Positions 2,033 through 37,946 of a stretch of DNA of 64,000 nucleotides are shown here, piece by piece. The stretch is from the NCBI GenBank assembly GCA_010015805.1, contig ML978123.1:1550001-1614000 (forward strand), written 5' to 3'. A program made the position numbers and the translations under genes. The number at the start of each line of letters is the position of its first letter. The first letter of the stretch is position 1. Source of the stretch: Rhizodiscina lignyota (Eukaryota). The notes under the pieces were generated by a model. It did not search any database. It saw only the letters and a list, made by a program, of their open reading frames with translations, and was not told the origin of the DNA.

Positions 2033-5000
2033 CTACTTCTTGTCAGCGTTCGCCGACCTGCTGGCCACCCTGTTGGAACGCCGAGTTGGCGACCGAGCGA
2101 CACGAGACGCCCGCGACGGCGGACGGGTGTTGGGCGCAGACACCGCGCCACGACCGCCACGAGCACCCCCGTCCCCCCTCACCACCTCCTCCTCCCCACC
2201 CTCCGATCGCACCTCCACCGGCTTCGCCAAGCCCTCCACACCCAACACCCGCAACTGCGACACCGCTGTGCTCGACAGCACCGATTGCGCCTTCTCGGAA
2301 GGCTTGCGGACACGCGCTGATGCCCTCACGCCGCTGCCGGAGCCACCCTTGGTGCCGGCCTTCTTGCGAGGAGCAGATTTCTTGTCTGCTACCTCGAGTG
2401 ACAGGTCCGGCACCTCGGCGCTGGCCTCAGCAGACGCGCGAGCAGGAGCAACAGCCGCGACAGGATCGGTGGCAGCCTCGACGGGCTGCACGGTGGTCTC
2501 CACGGCGGGAGCAGCAAGCTCGACAGCAGGAGCAGCGGCAGCGGCCGCGAGATACTCGTCAATGAGCTTGCGAATGCTCACGAGCTTCTCTCGCTCAGCC
2601 TCTCCGATCTGGTCTGTGCCGAACGCGGCGGCAATAGCCTGCAGGGGCGTAACTTCTGTACGACCTGCCTCGGCAGCCAGGGTTCTGAGGAGATTGGTGC
2701 TGCCAGCACCGACGGTCGACACGTCCTGGGTCTCTTGGGAGAGCTGTGCGAGACCAAGAGCAGCCTGCTCTTCCTGCTGTGCGGTGGATGAGGACGCGGC
2801 CTCCACGATGGGCTGAGCTTGAGCTGGATAGCGGTAGCCAGCTTCTTGCAGACGACTCTGCTGGTCGGCGTGGTACTGCTGGAGCTTCTCGTTTTCGCGC
2901 TCCGCGCAGCGCACGCTCTTCTCCAACAGCTTCTCGTTCTTCTGCAAGACGGCCTCATCGATGCGGCGGTTGGCCTCCTTCATGCTGCGTCGGTACTTCT
3001 TGAGCTCCTGGAGGGCGTCCTTCGTCACGCTCCTCACCGTCTCGTACATCTCCCGGTCCTTCCTCACCTTCTCTTTCTCCTTCATCTCTCTCACCTGCTG
3101 GATGAAGTTCGTGAACATTGCCATGCGAGGCATCCGGACCAGTTGGCCGTCTTGAACTTCCTGTGAGAGCTGGAGATCCCCGTCATCGTCAATGACCTCG
3201 ATACGACCATGTGTGCGCATGCCAGCGCGCCAATCCACCTTAGTCGGGTTGCGAGGGATGCGCAGGCGATGGAAGTTGTTGCCTCTCGGAGGCTGCGTCT
3301 TCTTCTGAGTCGCCTTCTGGGCCGTGGTCTGAGCCTCATTGGTGCTCTCATTGTCGGCGGTCTCGTTGGCGCGTAGGTCGTCGCCTCTGTGAAAGAGGGG
3401 ATTCACAGCCTCGCGAATGTCATGCTCAACGTGGTGAGGGCACGCCCAGTCATTCTTGATCTTGGTGTGGCCCTTCTGACGGCCACGAATGGGCGGGTTA
3501 GCAAGAGGAGGGTCGAGGCAGTCGAGATGCCACCATAATCCGCAGCTGGCCTTTCCACACTGAATAATCATACGACGAGGCTCATTACCAATGCCGCCTG
3601 CGCCTTCCCCGCAGAAGTAGCAGAGGATGGGGTTCTCGTTGCTATCGGCCGTGGGATACAAGTCTGGCTGGGGATCGGTGGCCTCCTTGGCGCGTGCGAC
3701 ACGAGTGACAGTGATATTGCCTGGGAGATACTCCCCGTCAAGGCCGACATTGTTATCCTCGAAATGGTTCTGGATGTCGTCGGGTAGGCGAAAGCCTCGT
3801 GGCTGGGCGGACTCCACAATGGCGTCCATGTTGCCCCATACGGAGCTGAAGCGTGCCTTCCCATTTCGAGTCTTCGCCTTGCAGGCATGACAGAACCATT
3901 CTCCTTGGAAATCTTCGTCCACGGGTGGATCCGCACAGTTGTGGTGAGACACGCGTGGGCAGCTTTCGCAGCAGAGGAGCAGGCCTCCAGTTCCACAAGT
4001 CGCGCATTCATTGTCGTGATTGTCGGAAGCCTGCGAGATTGTAAGCGGTGGTGAGGGTTGTGCGTGGTTGAAAACAACGGAATCTAGTGGGAAAACGCGT
4101 ATTTCAAGGAGAGATTTGCGCCTCTTCATGGTATGGGGGAAGAAAAAAGAGTATGTTTGTTGAGCAAGGTTGGTACGCGCATGTGTGAGAACAGGGTTTT
4201 GGGCTGGACGCCAGGAACGCGTGACTTACCTGAGCCTCGTTATCATTGGCCAGCGGCGAGTTTCTGGTGCCTCCCGAGCGCGTTCCGCTCACAACGCCTG
4301 CAACTTGCTCATTGCGATTCTTGACGGGCCTAGAGAAAAAAGAATGCGTCAGTAAAGTCATCCATGGGCGTAGCGTTGCGCTGTGCTCAACGTGGCAGTC
4401 GATGCAGGGAAATGAGGTGGCGGGCTGGGGTGAACCGCCGCGCAATCTGCCCAACCGGGCTGCAAGCATCGCACAAAGGAGGCGAATGACTCGAAAGGGC
4501 ACAACGGCCACAATGGCCACAGAAAAAAGCGGCAGAGGATACTTGGATATAGAAAAACAAAAAAGAGATCGCGACTTACGAGATCTTGGTCTTGGCACGC
4601 GCGTCCGCTCCAACCTTCCGCTTCTTCACCGGCGGGCCTGGCGGAGCAAGCTCAGGTGTCGCTGGCCCAGACGAGAGTGCTGAGCTGGAGGAGGAGCCCT
4701 CACGCTCGGCCGTCGTACGCTTGCCTGTCGTACGCTTTCCGCCACGATTGGCCTGGGCAGCTGGAGGGTTGCTCGATGGTGCTGGCGCCTGCTGCGACGC
4801 CGTGGTTGTTCCAGAGGGACCTGTTGTGGGTACTGCCGGAGGGGGTGGAGGGGGTGGAGGGCGAGAGCGCAAGTTGCTCTCATTATCGGTGTATTGGAAG
4901 GTTGGATAGTTGGCCTCGTACTCCTTTCGCATCTCCGCACGCCTCCTCTCGTACTCCTTTTCAACCTCAGGATCCTTCGGTGGCTCCTTGGCCTTCTTCT

Positions 5001-6759
5001 CATCCCCCTCGTCCTTCTCTCGTCTTGCTCGCCTGGCTGCAGCTGAATCCTGCTTCGTGTCTCGTGGGGCCAGCTTGTAGCGCTGCTGATTGCCGCCTTT
5101 CTTGCCTCCGCTCTGGAAGGACTTGAACGCTTCTGACTGGAGGGCTTGGGCTTCGCTCGTGATCATTTCCTTTGCCAAGGCCTGGAGTTCTTCATCATCG
5201 TCATCATCGTCATCATCATCTTCTTCTTGCTCTTCACCGTTATCAACAGGGGTTTCATGTGCGCGGATGAGAGACTCATCCACCTCAGACAGCTCCAGGT
5301 CGGATGGACTGCTGGTGGCCGGACCCTTCCTAGAGGCCGGCTTTAGGGGGGCAGCAGGCTTTAGGGGGGCAGCAGGTTTTGGGGGGGCAGGCTGAAGGTA
5401 CGCGATCGTGAAAGGATCTGTGTACCCGTTGTCCGTGGCTCGCGTTGTCCGAGCTCTCTTCGGCGGCGGTGAAGCGTATAAGCTGTCATCCGAGGAGTAA
5501 TCCCTTGTTGTTTTGTTGCCAGCGCGGGGTTCAAGAACCGGCATAGTGTCAACTCTCACTATAAGGGGTGACAGTCCGCGAAAGAAACTCCGAGCCGGTG
5601 GTGGGGAAGCTTCCACGGGCTTAGTGTTAGGTGCCTCGGTCGTTGTTGTGGTAGGAGCCGCTTCGGGCGCGGGGAGAGTGAATGCGTTTTGAGGGACCGC
5701 GGATGTAGAAGCGGGAACAGCAGCGGCAGTGGACGCGAAGACAGGGAGATTGCTCGCCATCTCCTTCTTTGCCTTCTTCAGGCGCACCTTCTCGGCCTTG
5801 ACGCACTTCTCGAAGTAGGCAGCCTCTTCAGGAGTCGGGTTCTGGCGGCCAACACTTGCGAGTGTGTTCCAGAGTTTCTCATCCTTCTCGGCCAGGTGGA
5901 TGACGCTGACAACGGCGAGACCGTTGATGCCAGTCGGGTCATCCTTGAAGGACTTCACGGCCTTGATCACGTCGTCGGCGTGCTCCTGGTTCCAGGGGCA
6001 GTTCGACACCAAAACACGAAGCTCAGATTCAGAAGGAGTAACAGAAGTCATCTTTGCTTGTGTAGGAGTCTGATGTAAGGTTTGATGTGCAGAAGCGTTG
6101 GGTTGGAAAGTAGAAGCTTGAAGTTGTGGTGTAGGTGTTGGTGTGGAAGGTTGTAAAGAGTTTGTTGCTTGTGGAGTGAGAGAAGAAGGTTGCGTTGGGA
6201 GAGATATAGAGGCACGGGGGGGTGGTGTTGAACCAGCCGAAGTTGTGCCGTTTGTTATTTTGAGCCTGACAATGGGTTCTTTGTGCGTTGGCGCGGAGGC
6301 CGGAAGCAATTCGGAAGTTGAACACTCTTCATGAGGCGTCAGTGACGGAGATGGCGCTATCTCTCCTGTCGCGCGTGGTTCTGATGGCCCTTCTGCAGGC
6401 GTGTGCTCCATCGACCCTCGTGATTCTCTCTCTGATTCATCCACGACGAGCATGCTCAACGGCTCCCCCATAGTTGCTCGCCTGCCATGGCTATCCCTGA
6501 TCTTCGCCTTGAGTTTCGCTGATGGCACCGCACCGAGTGGTTGCATGTCAACGAAAAGGCCTCCGCGCTCAAAGCCTGCCTCTTCAAAACTTGGCCGCGG
6601 ATCTGCCAGCGGCGGTTCCACCCATCCTGTGAGTGTTGTCTGTCTCTTCTCTTTCGCCGGATCTGTTACGAAAGGTGCCGGTGAATTTCGCGCCGTAGTG
6701 ACAAAGGGGCTCGACATGCGACTCGATTGTCGCGTCGCCCTCGTGGACGTGGGAGGCAT
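2033..6759 (-). CDS. RCO1: Large double-PHD-finger chromatin protein, Rco1/Cph1-like (Rpd3S subunit family); 3 exons: 6759-4580, 4329-4230, 4030-2033
   Basis: The two long ORFs join through GTAAG..AG introns into KTKIS|PVK...NEAQ|ASDNHDNEC. PHD1 is CATC..LLCCESCPRVSHHNCADPP..WFCHAC; PHD2 is CYFC..CGKASC..WHLDCLDPP..WACPHH. The N-terminal LTGWVEPPL..RPSFEE..G motif is typical of filamentous-fungal members. Orthology is inferred, not tested. Confidence 0.8.
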
Positions 6760-7191
6760 GGCGCCGAAAGCGAGGGCGCGACCGCCGCGGGGTTCTGCAG
6801 GTACGTTAGCAGCTGATTATGGATATGATGATGGCTATCAATTACTCAACAGGTGAAATCCTCGCTGGGCGTCGTGGTGGTGGAGCGCGATGGGACGAAG
6901 GGGCGACGATGAATTGGAGATGGGACGAGACGTTGTTCAGATGCGGACCGCCGGAGAAGCCCCTTTGATCAGATGACTTGCGGCAAAAAAACGACTTTGG
7001 ATCCTTCCCGATTACTATTTTGATAAGATCCCAAATGCTCGTTGAGTCAAAATGGAGCGTTTCAACATTTGATCATCACTTTTGCTCTGCAGACGACTTG
7101 TTGTTGAGGTACTCTTGCATCTGCCGATTTGTCTCAGGGACAGGGGGCGCGTCGCCGAAAGGAGACGGCAAGACGACAAGGCCAAAAGAAA

Positions 7192-8360
7192 CTTCAACTT
7201 CTTTGGCGTGCAGAAGGTTGTAAGGGAGAGAAGGTCAAGTTGCATCAGACTCTCATATACCACTAATGGCCGAAGACCGGAAGTAGTAAAGAAATGTGGC
7301 TTCGGTCTGTGATATCCTCCTCAGGAGATGGATGGATCGATCCAAATTTTTCGGTATGCAGGAGGTTGTTAAGAGAGAAATTCGGTTGAAGTCAGGCGCT
7401 CATATCACCATTGGCTGAGGACGGGCTGGAGAAGAATGCACGTTCGATCTGTTGCTGTCCTCCTTTCAAGAGACGGATGAACCGATGCAACCTCTCTGGC
7501 AAGTAGAAGGTTGTAAGAGAGAAAGCAAATCCGGATCGGACCCTTATATATACCACTCGTGACCGAAGACAGGAGCGGTGAAGGAAGGCAGGTACGATTC
7601 GTGATACCTTCTGGGGAGACTAGACAGATGAATCTATGCAAACTCTCTGACTCGCAGAAGGTCGTAAGAGAGAGGAAGTAGATCTGGATCAAACTCTCGC
7701 ACATATACCACTAGTGGCCAAGGCCGGAGTGGTCGAAGAATGCAGATTCGATCCGTGATATTCCTCTTTCAGGAGACAAAGACTGAATGCAACTTTTCTA
7801 GCAACCAGAAGGTTGTAAGAGAGAGGAAGAAAATCGGAATCCGACTCGCATATACCGCCCGCGACCGAAGACCATATCAGTGAAGAAAGGCAGGTTCGAT
7901 CAGTGACATCCTCTTGGGAGACGGATGAAAAGAAGGTTGTAAGAGAGAGGAAGTAGACGTGGATCAGACTTGTATATATACTACTCGTGACCGAAATTCG
8001 GAGTGGTGAATAGAGGCAGGATCGATCCGTGCTATTCTCGAAGAAGACGGACATATCTATGCAACTTCTCTGGCGTGCTCAGAAAGATGAAAAAGACAGA
8101 AAGTTACATCTGGATGAGACTCTCATATATATCATTAGTGGCCGACGACCGGAAGTCCAGATGCTGTCAATCCTCTCTTTCAGAAGGAAGGTGCCTTGGT
8201 TCAACTCTTTGGCGTGCGGAAATGTAGAATACGAGCGGAAATCACATTCAGATCAAACTATCAAATATCTACGAATAGCCAACGATGGGCATCGTGGAAA
8301 GAATTCGGTTTGGATACCGTGACATCCTCCTTTTCAGGAGATGGATGCATTGATGCTAAG
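7192..8360. repeat. Intergenic degenerate tandem array of ~8 units, 125-151 bp each
   Basis: Anchor (c)agaaggttgtaagagagag recurs at about 7211, 7359, 7504, 7655, 7806, 7931, 8080 and 8217 (last two degenerate). Each unit continues ...gatc..actc.catata.accact.gtg(g/a)ccgaagac...gaagaa.gcaggttcgatccgtgatatcctc...ggagacggatg..atgcaact. Indels break any reading frame. Confidence 0.95.
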
Positions 8361-8540
8361 CTAGGTAGGTAATACATCTTCTTGCCTGTATCCCATCGTA
8401 AAATTGTGCTTGCGCACTTTTGTTTGAGCTAGCCAAGTGAGTAGCAAGCATGGTTGTCTGGTCGTGCTGCGAGACACTCTACCGGATGATTCTTCCGAGT
8501 CGTGCTACTCTGATTGCAGCGCAAATGGTGGAAGATAGCT

Positions 8541-10039
8541 TTACTCGTCCTCGCTGTCATCATCATCATCGTCATCATCGTCCTCGACCTTCTTGGCAGG
8601 CTTCTTCTTCTTCTTTTTGTTCTTCTTCGCCGTGGTGGCTTTGGCCAGGGGCTGCTCAAGTATCTTGAGGACTTCCTCATCCGTGATCTTCTTGTCGCTC
8701 TTGTACTTGGCTGGGTCGAAAGCAGGCGGAGTAGCCAACCTTGTCAAGCCATTCTTCGTGATTACTGGGTTCTCCATTAGTCTCTGGCAAGCAACAAGAG
8801 AGAAAGCTTTGGACTCACCGACGGTCGTGAACAGCCTGCTCACTGGCTCACCCTCCTTGTCCCCAACAACCTCGTACTGCCTCAGCACATTTCCCCTCAC
8901 ACACTCCATCACACCAATCTTCGCCGCCCGCTCATCCTCCAACTGGCGCATACTGAACGGGAACGTGCCAAACTTCTTCACAATCTCGCTCAGCGTCGCC
9001 CTGCTGCTCGCCCTCTTCAGGCCAAACGTCGTCGTCGTTCTGCGCAGCAGCGTCGCGCGATTGGGCAGCGTCTTCACCTTGCCACTGCCCAAGCTCACTC
9101 CCATTTCCACGCCCCAAACCTCCATGGGCTCAGGGTTGCCATCGCCCTTGACCCCCTCGCCCGGCGCGAGGATGATCTTCTTCTTGCCCTCAATCTCGTT
9201 ACGCTCGAACAGCCAGCACGTCGTGCTCTCCACGAGGTTGCAGTCATACGCCTTGACCACCTTCTCGAGCAGCTGGTTGATCTTCGTCTGGCTGGGCGGC
9301 TTCTGGCCCTCAGCCTTCTTCTTCTCTTCCTCCGTCGCGGCCACCAGGCCCGGCGGCACCATCAGCCTCAACAGCAGCTCGTTTGCATAGTGGGTCGCGA
9401 GCAGCAGGTCTGCCGTCCTGCCCTCGACCACGCCACCCACGACGATATTGTCGCAAACGATGGTACCAAAGCCATCAATCTGCACGCCGAGCTGTATCTT
9501 TACCACTTCACCCTTCTTCAGCGTCGTCGACGCCTCCTCGGCGTCCGACTTCAACGGCGTGTATGGCGTGACATACGACGAAGGCGAGATGGTGCACGGG
9601 TGCGCAATACCCTTGGAGATCTTCTTGCCCTTGTAGACTTTCGCAACTTCAGCGTCGAGGAGGGCGTCGCCGCGTTCGCAGAGCTCGATGATGTGCGCGC
9701 CTTCGGTGCACCAGCCTGATTACAAATTAGCGTTTATTCCACGAAGATATGGAAAACATTGCAAGGGCGCTGAACGTGGTCGTTGCAAGCTGAGACTGAG
9801 TGTGGGCCATACCTGAGACCGCCTCGAGCGCCTTGTTCGAGATCTGCGCGGCTTGCTTGTACTTCGTAAGGGTGTCCGGGTTGCTCAGCGAATAATCTGT
9901 GCACCATGTGGTCAGTCTTCGTCACTTCTCAAGCTCAATGGAATGTATGTGGAGAGCATCAGGCGCAGGCCCACAAATGGAATGTTCGAAGCTTTGTGGC
10001 TTCACTGGACTTACCGACTTGAGCTTCCTCGGCCGCCAT
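8541..10039 (-). CDS. cdb4: Curved DNA-binding protein Cdb4 / Ebp1 (PA2G4), inactive M24 peptidase fold; 4 exons
   Basis: MAAEEAQV|DYSLSNPDTLTKYKQAAQIS...KGIAHPCTISPSSYVTPYTP...VKIQLGVQIDGF...EIVKKFGTFPFS, ending in KKNKKKKKK and an acidic tail; canonical introns. Confidence 0.92.
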
Positions 10040-10718
10040 GTTGAGGAGGTGCTCTCGGGCACTTGCTTTGTGATTTTCAGTATCCAACAGCCAGAGCAGT
10101 CGAGAGAAGAGGGGATGCTGAATTTGAGTTTTCGAGCAAGTCGTGTGTGGGATGTTAGCAAGGTTGATGGTGGGGCTACTTGGTGGTACCACTGCCCAAC
10201 AACGTCACTGGAAGAGAGACGCAGGCACGACGAAGCTCAGGGGTTCATGTAAGATACCAAGCTCAGAGCAAATGAAGTTGGTTTGCAAGAGGTAGAAAGT
10301 GAAGTTGAGATGCTCAACGGCAATGCTGCTTTTTCTCTTAAGCAGGCTTGCGAAAGGAAGTCGCGAGAGTTCACGCGACATTCGATTGCTTGTTTGGGTA
10401 GACTTACTAGCCCAATCAGAGCAGGATCGAGCGATGAGCAAGCAGTAAGCTTACAGAGTGCACGGAAGAGGACAAAGAGTGATTGTATGAATGGATATGT
10501 ATATATAGGCGAGCCGATCTGCTAACTCGCCCGAGTCTCTGAATTGTCTCCAAGACTGAGCAGAGACCAGATGCCAATATCCACTGAACCAAACCAACAG
10601 TTTCCAAGCTGTTGATCATGCTGTTAACTCGTAACTCACTTCGTGACTTACTACTGCCTTTTCAATTCCAGTGGTCATATTTCTAATAAACCGCTACCAT
10701 CGAAAACATTCGCCTATC

Positions 10719-13330
10719 TTATGCGCCACCACCACCACCCCTTCGCCTTAACTCAACCCTCTCCTTATGTTGCCTATTGTTCAGATGCGTCTTGAAGTTG
10801 TCCACGCTCAACTCCGGACCAGCGGTGTAAAGCTTTCCGGGGCAGTCAATGCACCTGATCCTTGGGAGCCACATGAACTTGACGTTATCAGGCGGCCTAC
10901 CATCAGGCTTCATCATCTTGCCCTCTAATTTGACCTGCGCATTCGTGTCTCGGTCCATTGCCGAGTAACGCATTGTTGCCTCAAAGAGATCGGCGGGATA
11001 TTTGGTCTGGAGGTCGGCGAGGGCTTGAGTGAGCCAAGGAGGTGGAGGAGCCTGTTTTGCGAAAGAAATTAGCATGGTATATGGAGAAGGGTGGACGGCA
11101 CCGAGTTGATGGTTGATCCGAGTCATGTTGCTCGGGAGAAGGAAACGGTATCACTGACTGAAGTAGCAGGTTGCGGGTACGGTGCATCCGCTCGGCCATC
11201 CGGATAGTACTGCATGTTCTGACCATTCACCTCCGCAGTTCCTGCCGCAGTCGACATTGGCGTCTGACCTTGCGACGCGCTCTCGGTTTTCACATTATGA
11301 TGGCTCGGGGCAGGCGATGGCGTTGGGTTCGAGGTCGGCAGCGCGCTATTACTCTGGCGTGGAGTGTTCATCTGACTCTGCGACCCCGTTAGACCCGATG
11401 TTGGCGCCAGCCGACCAGGGCCTGGAGATTGTTGGTTGGGGAACTCGCCAGTAGGGCGCCGCTTGCCCATGTTTTGCAGGAACCGTCGGAACCTCTCCTT
11501 GCCGATGCGCAGCTTGACAATGAGCTTCTCGGGCGCCAGACTCTCTTCACGCCCAGGCGTCTCCATGACGCCGAATCTTCGCGCCGACGTACGCGTTTCG
11601 TGGTGGTGAAGAGATGAGATCTCTGGAGTCGCAGATCGGCCCAAATTGGCGCGCATTGCTTGTTGCGCCGCGTTCGCTGCACCTCGCATCGTTCGCTGTC
11701 GTGCGGTGCCACCCAGCTGCATCGTCGCTGGTGAATCTGGGCCTGACTCTTCGCTATCCGATTCATCGGAATCGTCACCATCCAAGCGACCAGTCGTGCG
11801 CCTGCTACGACCCGACGTTCTGGAGAGCTTGAACAATCTGCTGTTCTCGATCGAATCTGCTGCTCCAGGCAGAACGGAGGACACAACCATAGTGCGCACA
11901 GTTCTTGCTCGGTCTTTCAGATCCGGTAATGCTGGCCCACCACGTCGAGTTACTGATCGCTTCTGTCGCCGTTGTTCACGTAGGATTGAGAGCTCTTCAC
12001 GCTGAAGATCGGACTCGGTCAATTCATAGAGATACGGCGCGTACTCTTTCGCAGACTGCGCCGGCCTGAAAATACTCGGTAAAGGTGATGGAAGAAAGCC
12101 ATCACGCACATCTGCATCTTCGATTGGCCTCCCGTCGAATGGATGGCCTGTAATGTACAGGCTTCGGGTGAACATTTGGCATTGCTCCCGAATGGAGTGC
12201 GCGATGGCAGTCGTGAATTCACCAGACAGTGACATTTCCCATGCCATCTGTCTCGCAAACTCTTCCGGATTGTTGAGCGGGTTGTTGATCTCCCATTCAA
12301 ACTGGTCCACGAGCGTGTGCTGGCCGATTGTGATGTTGAGCTTGATCAGAATCCGCATTTCGTCGTTCTTGTATGCAGAGTATGGTAGATGTGGATCCAA
12401 CGGTTCCTCGTCGATGAAAACGTGAGGGTAGAAATCCTGAATCTGCTCTCTGATCTCGCCAGTGATTTGATGAACCAGTCCTGCGCTGATCTCTGGAGGT
12501 ACCTTGAAGTCCTCCACGAGAGCTTCTGCAAACAGTTCGGGAGCCACTACGCGGTCGTGGAGATTCCATGTAAAGGTATCTCGAAGCTTTAGCTTCTCCA
12601 TCTCAATGTCCAGTCGCACAGGAACGAGTTCTTCTAGCTGCTCGGCCTGCATTGCTGTCTCCTTGCGCGGGATTCGTAGTTCTCGTGCTCTTCGATGTCC
12701 AGCACGCCTTCGATCATGAGGATATACAACGCCTGGCTTGCCTTCTGTCTTGCCATTTCCGAAGCCATTGAAGCCTTTGCCATATATCTCCGACGCCATC
12801 ACGAAAGGATTCATCTTGCGCTGATCGAGAACAGCTTTGTAGTGGTTGAATTCCTGTTGCTTGGCTGTGAACATTCGCCGTGTCTCTTCTGCTTGGTCGT
12901 TCATGGCAACTGCATGGATCTGATCGCGAAAGATGTACTCCTGAAGCAAATACTCTTGTAAGTCGGGTTGAGGTTCTCTCGACGCGTCGTTCTGTGACGG
13001 AGTGGATGCGGGCTTTCGGGATCCCGAGCGAGATCGCTTTCGAGATAAGAGCACACCATTGACTGCGTTGCCGGCCGATGAGGGTCGCGACTGGTCGTCG
13101 TTTTCTTGGCCGAAAGCGACGCCGGCGGCAGCCATTACCGCCTTTGCCTTTTCCTTGCCCTCCGAGATCGCGTCTCTGGAGTCGGAGGTGCCATTCGGCC
13201 CACCGTCACCGTGTGTAACATCATGGCTATTGGCGACTTCTGAGCTGGCGACGCCGTTGCTGTTCTGGGACACTGGCGCGGACTGGGCTTGGAAGGCGGC
13301 GCTAGAAGAGGAGGACGATGGGGATTGCAT
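10719..13330 (-). CDS. SNF5: SWI/SNF complex subunit Snf5
   Basis: SNF5 repeats LVPVRLDIE..KLRDTFTWN and RILIKLNITIGQHTLVDQFEWEINN..PEEFA...LSGEFTTAIAHSIREQ. One intron at about 11158-11053 joins a C-terminal exon. ATG at 13330. Confidence 0.93.
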
Positions 13331-14507
13331 TGTATACGCGGGCACGCGCCGTGTGAGAGGTGATCACAGGTCGCGAGTAGAGCAGCGCGCGAATGCCCAA
13401 GGCCACAGCATGGAGGCTCTGCGAAAGTCAGCATGGTGGAAGAGCAAGTCGCGTCGGCGAAGCGCTCGGCTGAGGGTGCTGGGTAAGGAGGTGGGAGGGC
13501 GAAGGGCGCGCCATCAAAAACACAGCAAACAACGGAGAGTCCATCGCGCTTGAAATGAAGGATGGGATGAGGAGACGTACCGGGCAGTTTCGCACGCGCT
13601 TCCTCGTGAATGGAGCGTGTCTGAATCTGGGGCTGCCTTGGGACTTCTGGAACGCCAGGCGCCGGGCGCGGAGAAGCCGATGGGGAGAAGCAGTTCAGGC
13701 TCCGCTCCACCAAGCACCGTATCGGCAGTGTAGAGCACGATGAGAGCAGCGGAAGTGAGCCTATCGGAAGGGCGGAACAGAGAGGGAGGGCACGGAGGGG
13801 TTGTACAGCTGTATGAGTCGAGCGGCCAATATGTGTTGCGGATTGTCTGGGAGAAAGCGGCGGAAACGAAGAGCGGCTGGGCGCTTCGAAATCAAGTTTG
13901 CAGAGCTAACCCCATGCATCGTGGCGAGAGGGCAGCGCGGGCAGCGCGCAACGGACGCAGTAATTCACTTTCTACGCAGCATACATGCCATTTCTTCGTC
14001 TCGAGCACAAGCAAATATCGCGCCCTTCTCGGCGCTGCAAATTCCGGCAGCTTATTGCCTGAGACCTTTGTTCTCACCTGGCCGCACCACTGCGGCACGT
14101 GATGCGTCATTAAAAATAGACTAGCGTCGCATTCTTCCATTGCTCCTTTCGGGCAATAGCGCTTCTGCCGCCCACGGAGGACTAAGGAGATGCATCTCGC
14201 CTGCCGAATTAATTATCACTCCACGCGTCCGCATCTCTGATCTCGCTTCCTCAGTGTTGCGTAGCTAGCCCCCCAAGGACAGCTGTGGCAGGCCCTTCCA
14301 CCTCACTCATCCTCCCGGCTCGTCACTCAAATCGTCGGCGACCTCGGTGCGTCGGCGACCTCTCATAATTCCATCTCCCATCTTCGCCGAGTTGAGTATT
14401 TACCGTTCACTGTTTATTTAAGTCTGTAGTCTGTGCCGCCTCCTTCTCAGTCAGTCAGTCAATCAATCACTCTCCATACTCTAAAGCCACCCATTCATCG
14501 AGGCATC

Positions 14508-20998: not shown

Positions 20999-21206
20999 AT
21001 TAGGATGTTGGCATTTCCGAGATCTAAATACTCCGTTATCCTCGAAGCAAAGTTTCTGTATCTCGTATATTAAGGTCTCATCTAACAAGTGCTCTCAAGA
21101 TATATCAACTCGACCTTCCAGAGATACTCCTGTTTGTGTTGAATGGCAAAACTCGATTACGCTGTACTTGCTCAATTCATCGTGCGGTGGCGGATACACT
21201 ATTTCA

Positions 21207-36633: not shown

Positions 36634-37946
36634 ATGTCAACTATTCATGACGCGGCGCTTGATGCTTGCCTCTCAGATCAATGCGGCTGCAGAAACGTAT
36701 TTGCACCCCTTCAGGCGCTTAAAGAGATGGACGAGTGCAGCGAAAGCGAAGCCGGCGAGGTTGTCTGCCACAACATGTTTGCACCTCTCCAAGGGCTTAA
36801 AGAGACGGATGAGTGTAGCGAAAGTGAAACCGCTGAGGTCGAGAGGGAGCCACCCACAGTTGGTAAGACCTCTTCTGCTGAGTCACTTACTTTCAGCCTC
36901 TACCTCTTCCCTTTAACTCTACCCGAGTGTCACAAAAGCCTTGATACAATCGAACGTAAACTTCACAATGACCCCAACTTCATGTTATGGTCCAGGGTTG
37001 CGAAAGCTACTGCGAGATGAGCTCTGCTAACAAGTATGTGACTGTAGAGTGGTACGGCAGTCCGTCGAAACTTGTGGAAGCTCAGAGACGAGCTTTAGCA
37101 CCGAAGCGATACTTGGAGAACCGGAACAGCCCACTGCTCTCCTTGCCTCGAGAACTGCGCGACGAAATTTGGCGGCATGTCTTGGGAGATCGAATCATCA
37201 CGCTCCGCGAAAAGTGGTCATGGAGTAACGAGGATGAGGAAGACGACTACTGCCATGCCGTCGTTGGTAGTATCTATCAGGGTCCTGGAATATACTTCGA
37301 CCGCAGCAAGCCCGCCATTGTTCGAGATCCTAATTCGCCGTCCGAGCCAGCCCCCTGCTTGTCTTCCTCGAAAAGCGACAAAGAGTTCTGGTCTACTCGA
37401 CGGGACCCCTTCTGGCCTAGCTCATTGGGATTATTTTCGGTTTCACGGCAGTTTCGCGAAGAGGTGGAAGACGTGTTCTACTGTAAGAACATCTTCGTCA
37501 TCATGGGACCTGGGGCTTTGATTCGCCTCAAACATGCAGCAAAATATAGTCGGCGGTATCCGTGGACTGGGGCTCCGATATATCGAATACAGCACATGCA
37601 CATTGTCTGGAGCAGAGAGCAACCACGTTGGACCAGAGCGCTTTCCATCAAAGACCCTTCTGAAAGGTATCGACTGGACCTGGAGCGGATGCCGAGGCTG
37701 CGAACACTACATTGTTCCGATATTTCATCCCGTCATATGCATCTTGTCCCTGGCGGTTACTTCACTTCCCCCCGCTATCCTCTCAATGGCCATCGCATTG
37801 ATACGGTGAAGTTCTTCCGCCGAGCAGAAGGCGAAGAAATGGTCCGCTCCAAGGTTGAGACTTTCTTCCGCCAATCTAGGAGGGCATCAGGACGGCACGA
37901 CTTTGACTTGTGGCTGGCTGAATGGATCCGGAGTCGAAGAGAGTAA
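36634..37946 (+). CDS. Hypothetical F-box-like (DUF7730-like) protein with an N-terminal 26-aa duplication
   Basis: SPLLSLPRELRDEIWRHVLG and LFSVSRQFREEVEDVFYCKNIF. Upstream exon MSTIHDAA with GTAAG donor at about 36862. The exon join is inferred. Confidence 0.68.

Follow-up and report, generated by a model that had tools for sequence, protein, structure and literature searches.

The promoter repeat of PdCYP51A may be regarded as the closest functional analogue of the locus described here, and its copies are reportedly young and near-identical. According to a review, this Penicillium digitatum promoter carries five copies of a 126-bp enhancer with a measured effect on expression (PMC8471628); our array resembles it in unit size, in copy number and in lying upstream of a gene of a filamentous ascomycete, but is old and heavily diverged. 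The array also recalls long-unit minisatellites and single-locus satellites, which, in one account (PMC8122249), share with it head-to-tail, non-coding units of ~150 bp, a single euchromatic locus and lineage specificity. It differs from satellites, however, in having only eight copies that are 53–78% identical in pairs (eight-unit alignment), no longer homogenised and too diverged for Tandem Repeats Finder (TRF), and in being wedged between two conserved genes rather than pericentromeric or telomeric. A further point of reference is fungal repeats degraded by RIP, a process that favours CpA (PMC12543289) and that in Neurospora requires close repeats to share ~155 bp of perfect homology (PMC4858203). 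Literature searches by subject showed no report of an array at cdb4–Rco1 among the titles and opening abstract lines that they listed.

The window analysed is a 64,000-nucleotide stretch of contig ML978123.1 from the 33.4-Mb genome of Rhizodiscina lignyota (Dothideomycetes, Aulographales). Direct-repeat search and self-BLAST (period ~150 bp) reveal in it a strand-less tandem array of eight diverged head-to-tail units at 7192–8352 (Table 1), and a leave-one-out profile, built each time from the other seven units, recovers all eight (E = 4e-8 to 4e-29, scaled to a 33.4-Mb search). The initial annotation had described about eight diverged tandem units filling most of the gap between the start of a PHD gene and the stop of cdb4, and both statements hold: the array occupies 1,161 of the 1,781 bases that separate the PHD-gene ATG from the cdb4 stop. 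The anchor spacings (148, 145, 151, 151, 124, 150 and 138 bp) match those given in that annotation to within 1 bp. Its unit length of ~147 bp is a loose figure, given a mean spacing of 143.9 bp (SD 9.9), a mode of 151 bp and a unit consensus that is 148–152 bp depending on the alignment method. TRF, which it had recommended as a check, leaves the array unreported even at a score of 30. With head-to-tail copies beyond chance, a non-coding state and confinement to one locus, the array belongs among tandem repeats or minisatellites. Among the sequencing runs listed, one DNA run and no RNA run carries the stretch. A single contig of that DNA run, which is probably the assembly's own source, covers the array without differing letters, which argues against assembly error only.

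Table 1. Features of the cdb4–Rco1 interval and its flanks (window positions)
Feature	Position	Strand	Basis or remark
Two-PHD-finger gene, Rco1/Cph2-like (Rpd3S subunit)	2033..6759	-	ATG 6759; Pfam PHD
Predicted 51-nt 5'-UTR intron, Rco1-like gene	6795..6845	-	Motif scan: donor weak, branch point and acceptor good
Putative 5'-UTR and core promoter, Rco1-like gene, non-repeated	6846..7191	-	Inferred
u1, array unit	7192-7339		
u2, array unit	7340-7484		
u3, array unit	7485-7635		
u4, array unit	7636-7786		
u5, array unit	7787-about 7925		
u6, array unit	about 7926-8058		First ~20 bases absent
u7, array unit	8059-8199		
u8, array unit	8200-8352		
18-bp better-kept core, u1-u6	span 7212..7948	+	Starts 7212, 7360, 7505, 7656, 7807, 7931
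18-bp core counterpart, decayed	u7 8081, u8 8219		5/18 and 9/18 differences
cdb4 3' flank, non-repeated, 188 bp	8353..8540	-	Position/ORFs
cdb4 (curved DNA-binding protein, peptidase M24 fold)	8541..9921	-	Stop at 8541

Both flanking genes lie on the minus strand, and the array separates the stop of cdb4, whose exon is 100% identical to P0002 (a sequence labelled R. lignyota at its source), from the promoter region of the Rco1/Cph2-like gene, which appears from its open reading frames to consist of two large exons. The best solved match of the PHD region is S. pombe Cph2 (E = 8e-18), and because Cph2 and Rco1 both match over both PHD fingers, the RCO1 label originally given to this gene is reasonable. 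Given that the minus strand has no ATG upstream of the Rco1-like gene below 7068 and 16 ATGs inside the array, the array is most likely situated upstream of the predicted Rco1 transcription start site; it starts 430 bp upstream of the Rco1-like ATG, directly above the promoter predicted from that putative start site. A branch point and acceptor are found within 150 nt of the Rco1-like start in nine of the 14 syntenic loci (L009, L011, L012, L013, L021, L027, L031, L032 and L033), and the position of a short predicted intron just upstream of the ATG appears to be kept across distant ascomycetes. The gene block of SNF5, a small ORF (10719–11150), cdb4 and the Rco1-like gene (window 2033–13363), which joins two chromatin-complex subunits, is likewise kept across Pezizomycotina loci (L009, L013, L021, L022, L025, L026 and L032). 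The closest Rco1 N-terminal exon (37%, P0001) and the closest Cdb4 (85%, P0003) each lie on a Logan contig 27,930 bp long, in all probability one and the same, from the nearest relative encountered.

Searches of the 33.4-Mb genome by BLAST (with the whole array and with u4), by four patterns and by two X-read translations found the array nowhere else beyond chance, a lack of matches that in a DNA search does not prove rarity; off-array pattern matches either equalled the control level or failed the unit profile, which was run on the window and the fetched stretches. Pattern scans of metagenome and of viral contigs gave no match in either. Across a base-rate sample of ~0.76 Mb (60 chosen, spread 10-kb stretches, 30 further loci amounting to 94 kb, and the window), this array is the sole non-coding one with at least three copies, and the three other multi-copy arrays, from the 600-kb sample, all lie within open frames. 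Coding tandem repeats were noted at L109:2528–3042 (a 171-bp unit of 57 codons, present three times), L103:5369–7521 and L112:8067–9032. Two-copy duplications in the genome sample have several periods (including 78, 107, 111 and 220 bp), which indicates that tandem duplication in this genome is not tied to 147 bp. The window itself holds two-copy degenerate duplications, 77–86% identical, at 1314–1648 (220 bp), 1775–1969 (111 bp) and 36694–36839 (78 bp, in an open frame).

Relatives were represented by 28 loci from a metagenome Cdb4 search, with Cdb4 62–79% identical. The order SNF5, small ORF, cdb4, PHD gene is conserved wherever their contigs are long enough. In the syntenic check of the RCO1–cdb4 interval that had been proposed, the array is absent, as is any other, from all 14 intervals obtained (from 15 loci; three near-duplicates and two without a called ATG), all of which belong to distant relatives. 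No array was found in any of the 18 relatives with at least 800 bp downstream of cdb4, and the unit profile matched none of the 28 loci (best E = 0.82). As these relatives are distant, the absence says little about constraint. Their intervals measure 717–2,457 bp, a range that includes the 1,781 bp found here; less seven units, the present interval would be ~770 bp, near the shortest of theirs (717–860 bp). A search for motifs common to the array interval and those of the relatives gave only a 22-nt match (E = 0.011) and an opposite-strand 15-nt match (E = 0.039), both treated as chance. Two relatives (L018 and L027) share a 44-bp non-coding element 58–132 bases past the cdb4 stop (84% identical, E = 8e-7) in flanks that are otherwise unalignable; this element is absent from the R. 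lignyota interval.

The array is not saturated with TpA, just as the initial annotation had remarked. Its RIP composite index is −0.59 against a window average of −0.62, the TA/AT ratio of the consensus is 0.55, and C>T changes affect 11 of 103 CpA sites against 62 of 323 sites elsewhere (odds ratio 0.5, P = 0.05), so that neither the CpA-biased C>T change nor the raised TpA of RIP-mutated repeats is seen and the trend runs opposite to that of RIP-degraded fungal repeats. As a neutral control for array decay we used the copies of a MITE-like 230-bp dispersed family of the same genome, in which C>T changes do favour CpA (131/614 versus 138/1,600 elsewhere; odds ratio 2.9, the copies not being independent); the missing mark is therefore not due to a lineage that lacks RIP-like mutation. 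This family is bounded by terminal inverted repeats that are short and imperfect. Genome-wide it numbers 103 candidates, with 40 scored matches; its copies differ from the consensus by 7–36%, and the window contains a truncated copy (752–942) and a fragment (21087–21155). A 151-bp unit, just under 155 bp, could have spared early duplications, yet eight identical copies give more than 1 kb of homology. Amplification in an asexual phase, or preceding active RIP, would fit the missing mark too, and the missing mark does not by itself imply selection.

The unit tree is near-star, with internal branches making up 10.7% of a total length of 2.0 and one supported clade (u3, u5 and u6; 94/90). Allowing rates to vary among sites gains nothing (gamma shape 37) and column dispersion is 1.09; divergence along the units is thus close to uniform, a result that had been named beforehand as evidence against a maintained array. 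We suggest, at a probability of about 0.6, that the array is a lineage-specific, single-locus degenerate minisatellite produced by one old local amplification and then left to neutral decay. An ordinary segment of ~151 bp, from the intergenic DNA that separates the 3' end of cdb4 from the Rco1 promoter, would have been amplified head-to-tail to eight copies, presumably by slippage or unequal crossing-over. Most of this would have happened in a single old burst, and one later round would have produced u3, u5 and u6. Homogenisation would then have ceased and the copies drifted by ~0.25 substitutions per site each, with indels accumulating freely, so that at present the chief role of the array may be that of a spacer ahead of the Rco1 promoter. 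This reading is favoured by the near-star tree, the near-uniform rates, dN/dS values of 0.88–1.21 (whole-unit values for six frames and three alignments), the single locus, a length more variable than in simulation and more indels per substitution than in the MITE family. It is also favoured by the relatives without an array, the ~770 bp that remain after removal of seven units and the duplications of other periods in the genome. The neutral reading is weakened by a short core that is better kept in the promoter-side units than neutral models allow, by the long life of the array without collapse, by its rarity in the sample and by the missing RIP mark despite the more than 1 kb of homology that an eight-copy burst would create.

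Several other explanations can be set against neutral decay of a local repeat. The array is non-coding, and the earlier statement that indels destroy any frame is borne out, given that every frame is broken and the length of most indels is indivisible by three (21 of 28 are of 1, 2, 4, 5 or 10 bases, as are a few more of other such lengths; four of 28 are of three). A dead gene with near-identical internal repeats (50–51 codons per unit), since decayed, is improbable but retains a small weight because a gene dying with identical repeats would also leave dN/dS near 1; the location in open frames of each of the three other multi-copy arrays from the 600-kb sample, and the single stop in some consensus frames, point the same way. 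Yet every consensus frame is stopped, the modal length is 151 bp, mismatches lack a three-base period (P = 0.59), the best Pfam match over six X-read frames has E = 0.049, one plus-strand translation (one of six frames) matches none of 1.84 billion representative proteins, the genome searches found no paralogue, the locus has no room for a non-repeat part of such a gene and the syntenic order has no gene at that place. A reading as repeated exons and introns, or micro-exons, was rejected, as splice words are not kept and the entire array has one branch motif. We consider it very unlikely that a transposon once entered the interval and decayed, leaving the array as its internal or subterminal repeat. 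An inverted repeat (28 nt, 71%) does lie on either side (6888–6915 and 8371–8398), but its arms lack a target-site duplication, for which reason they were rejected as transposon ends, the 3.5 kb searched contains 25 inverted pairs, and the left arm is near the 5'-UTR. The genome searches found no second copy, the array is unrelated to the genome's MITE and it bears no RIP mark. Very little probability likewise attaches to a cluster of small-RNA or hairpin-RNA units in one transcribed precursor, one of the roles first envisaged, to which structure lends no support. The plus-strand folds of u3, u4 and u6 (z = −2.97, −2.17 and −1.96) and the minus-strand consensus fold (z = −2.26) would suit it; however, of the 16 unit folds only four go below z = −1.9 and the other 12 are weaker, the plus-strand consensus has z = −0.46 with a dyad score at chance, and RNAalifold finds 0 pairs on the plus strand and six weak pairs on the minus strand. 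For two plus-strand structures, covariation does not stand out from that of shuffles (112 and 167 of 500 score as high), on which ground a hairpin reading was rejected, so that the shared fold with compensatory changes expected of a structured small-RNA cluster is not seen. Rfam has no match at gathering score (two chance-level matches, E = 1.9 and 2.4), ARAGORN predicts no gene on the array, and a tRNA-like A/B-box reading was rejected because the words are no better conserved than the rest; the array is thus, as far as its sequence indicates, not a structured RNA array. The link first drawn between unit length and the nucleosome concerned 147 bp, which is the length of the nucleosome core and not of the nucleosome repeat, and short repeat lengths near 154 bp are found in some fungi. 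This last point, the modal spacing of 151 bp and the mostly nucleosomal unit length of satellites (PMC8122249) speak for a phasing or boundary array in which length is selected, each unit holds one nucleosome and the Rco1 promoter is shielded from cdb4 read-through. We nonetheless regard such an array as very improbable: spacings run from 124 to 151 bp with an SD that exceeds the 5.2 (5–95%, 2.7–8.4) of neutral simulation on the array tree (indel rate from the array itself, without a long-deletion tail), and the mean of 144 bp is below the core length and below the repeat lengths of 161–172 bp measured in four other filamentous fungi, two of them Leptosphaeria (bioRxiv 10.1101/2021.04.16.439968). 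MITE copies, at lower divergence, are at least as constant in length (SD 5.1 versus 4.7 over the same 122 columns), and indels per substitution number 0.126 in the array against 0.064–0.075 in those copies. The 10–11-bp dinucleotide periodicity is average (1.09 versus 1.06 ± 0.23 in 80 genome tiles, 46% of which score as high), there are only two A5/T5 tracts and B-box-like words within the unit are kept no better than the rest. With length looser than under neutrality and below 161–172 bp, nucleosome phasing is unsupported.

The main alternative to neutral decay is a homotypic cis-element array, in which a candidate site was amplified and kept by selection near the Rco1 promoter while the spacers and the two distal units decayed, such that Rco1 would be tuned in the way of cyp51 promoter repeats; we consider this possible but rather unlikely. 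An 18-bp core differs at four of 107 positions in u1–u6, the units on the promoter side, compared with 16–33% elsewhere (P = 0.0013 corrected for choosing six units; base-stratified permutation P = 0.0012; neutral simulation with realignment P = 0.007, 0.005 and 0.046 at widths of 18, 24 and 12), and the 27-bp deletion at u5/u6 ends just short of it. The position of the array above the Rco1-like ATG and its missing RIP mark would also agree with such a role, and its minus-strand C and T skews (+0.15 and +0.14) are nearer those of the relatives' upstream regions (+0.10 to +0.12 and +0.05 to +0.08) than those of their cdb4 3' flanks (−0.09 and +0.02). A 4-mer classifier of promoters versus terminators, trained on 21 and 86 regions, set their means 0.6 SD apart and was rejected as too weak. 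Over all eight units, however, no conserved window is significant (P = 0.054–0.71, the core itself at 0.054), in a test with a power of 0.95–1.0 for an 18-bp motif that evolves at 0.3 times the rate or less and is present in all eight. When eight MITE copies are drawn at a time, 10 of 40 sets attain the ratio of the core and five of 40 give P ≤ 0.01, the draws being overlapping, taken from 18 of 30 copies and less diverged than the array. Elsewhere in the genome the core shows no enrichment (five off-array matches at two mismatches versus five in the control), it is absent from the relatives' intervals, and short-tract gene conversion could yield the same pattern (run test not significant, best P = 0.015 among 28 unit pairs). 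Conservation of the core in u1–u6 is accordingly suggestive only. Of the initial proposal of a factor-binding platform, maintained rather than neutral, what stands are the missing RIP mark and, weakened by the MITE control, the core kept in six units (P ~ 0.005–0.007); the all-eight test and the near-uniform divergence of the eight units tell against it. More doubtful again is the fuller scenario of an ancient species-specific array that was spared by RIP, retains a predicted site in its six promoter-proximal units and sets the expression of the Rpd3S reader Rco1; if true, the array would document in nature how a promoter repeat matures to become a cluster of binding sites.

If the decay of this minisatellite has been neutral, as we favour, the locus would provide a small and clean case in which an old tandem array has escaped RIP and goes unseen by TRF, and would be of use mainly as a control for array decay. 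If instead the core is functional, the array may show how, next to the gene of a chromatin regulator, a promoter duplication of the cyp51 type turns with age into a cluster of sites, and would name an 18-bp candidate element.
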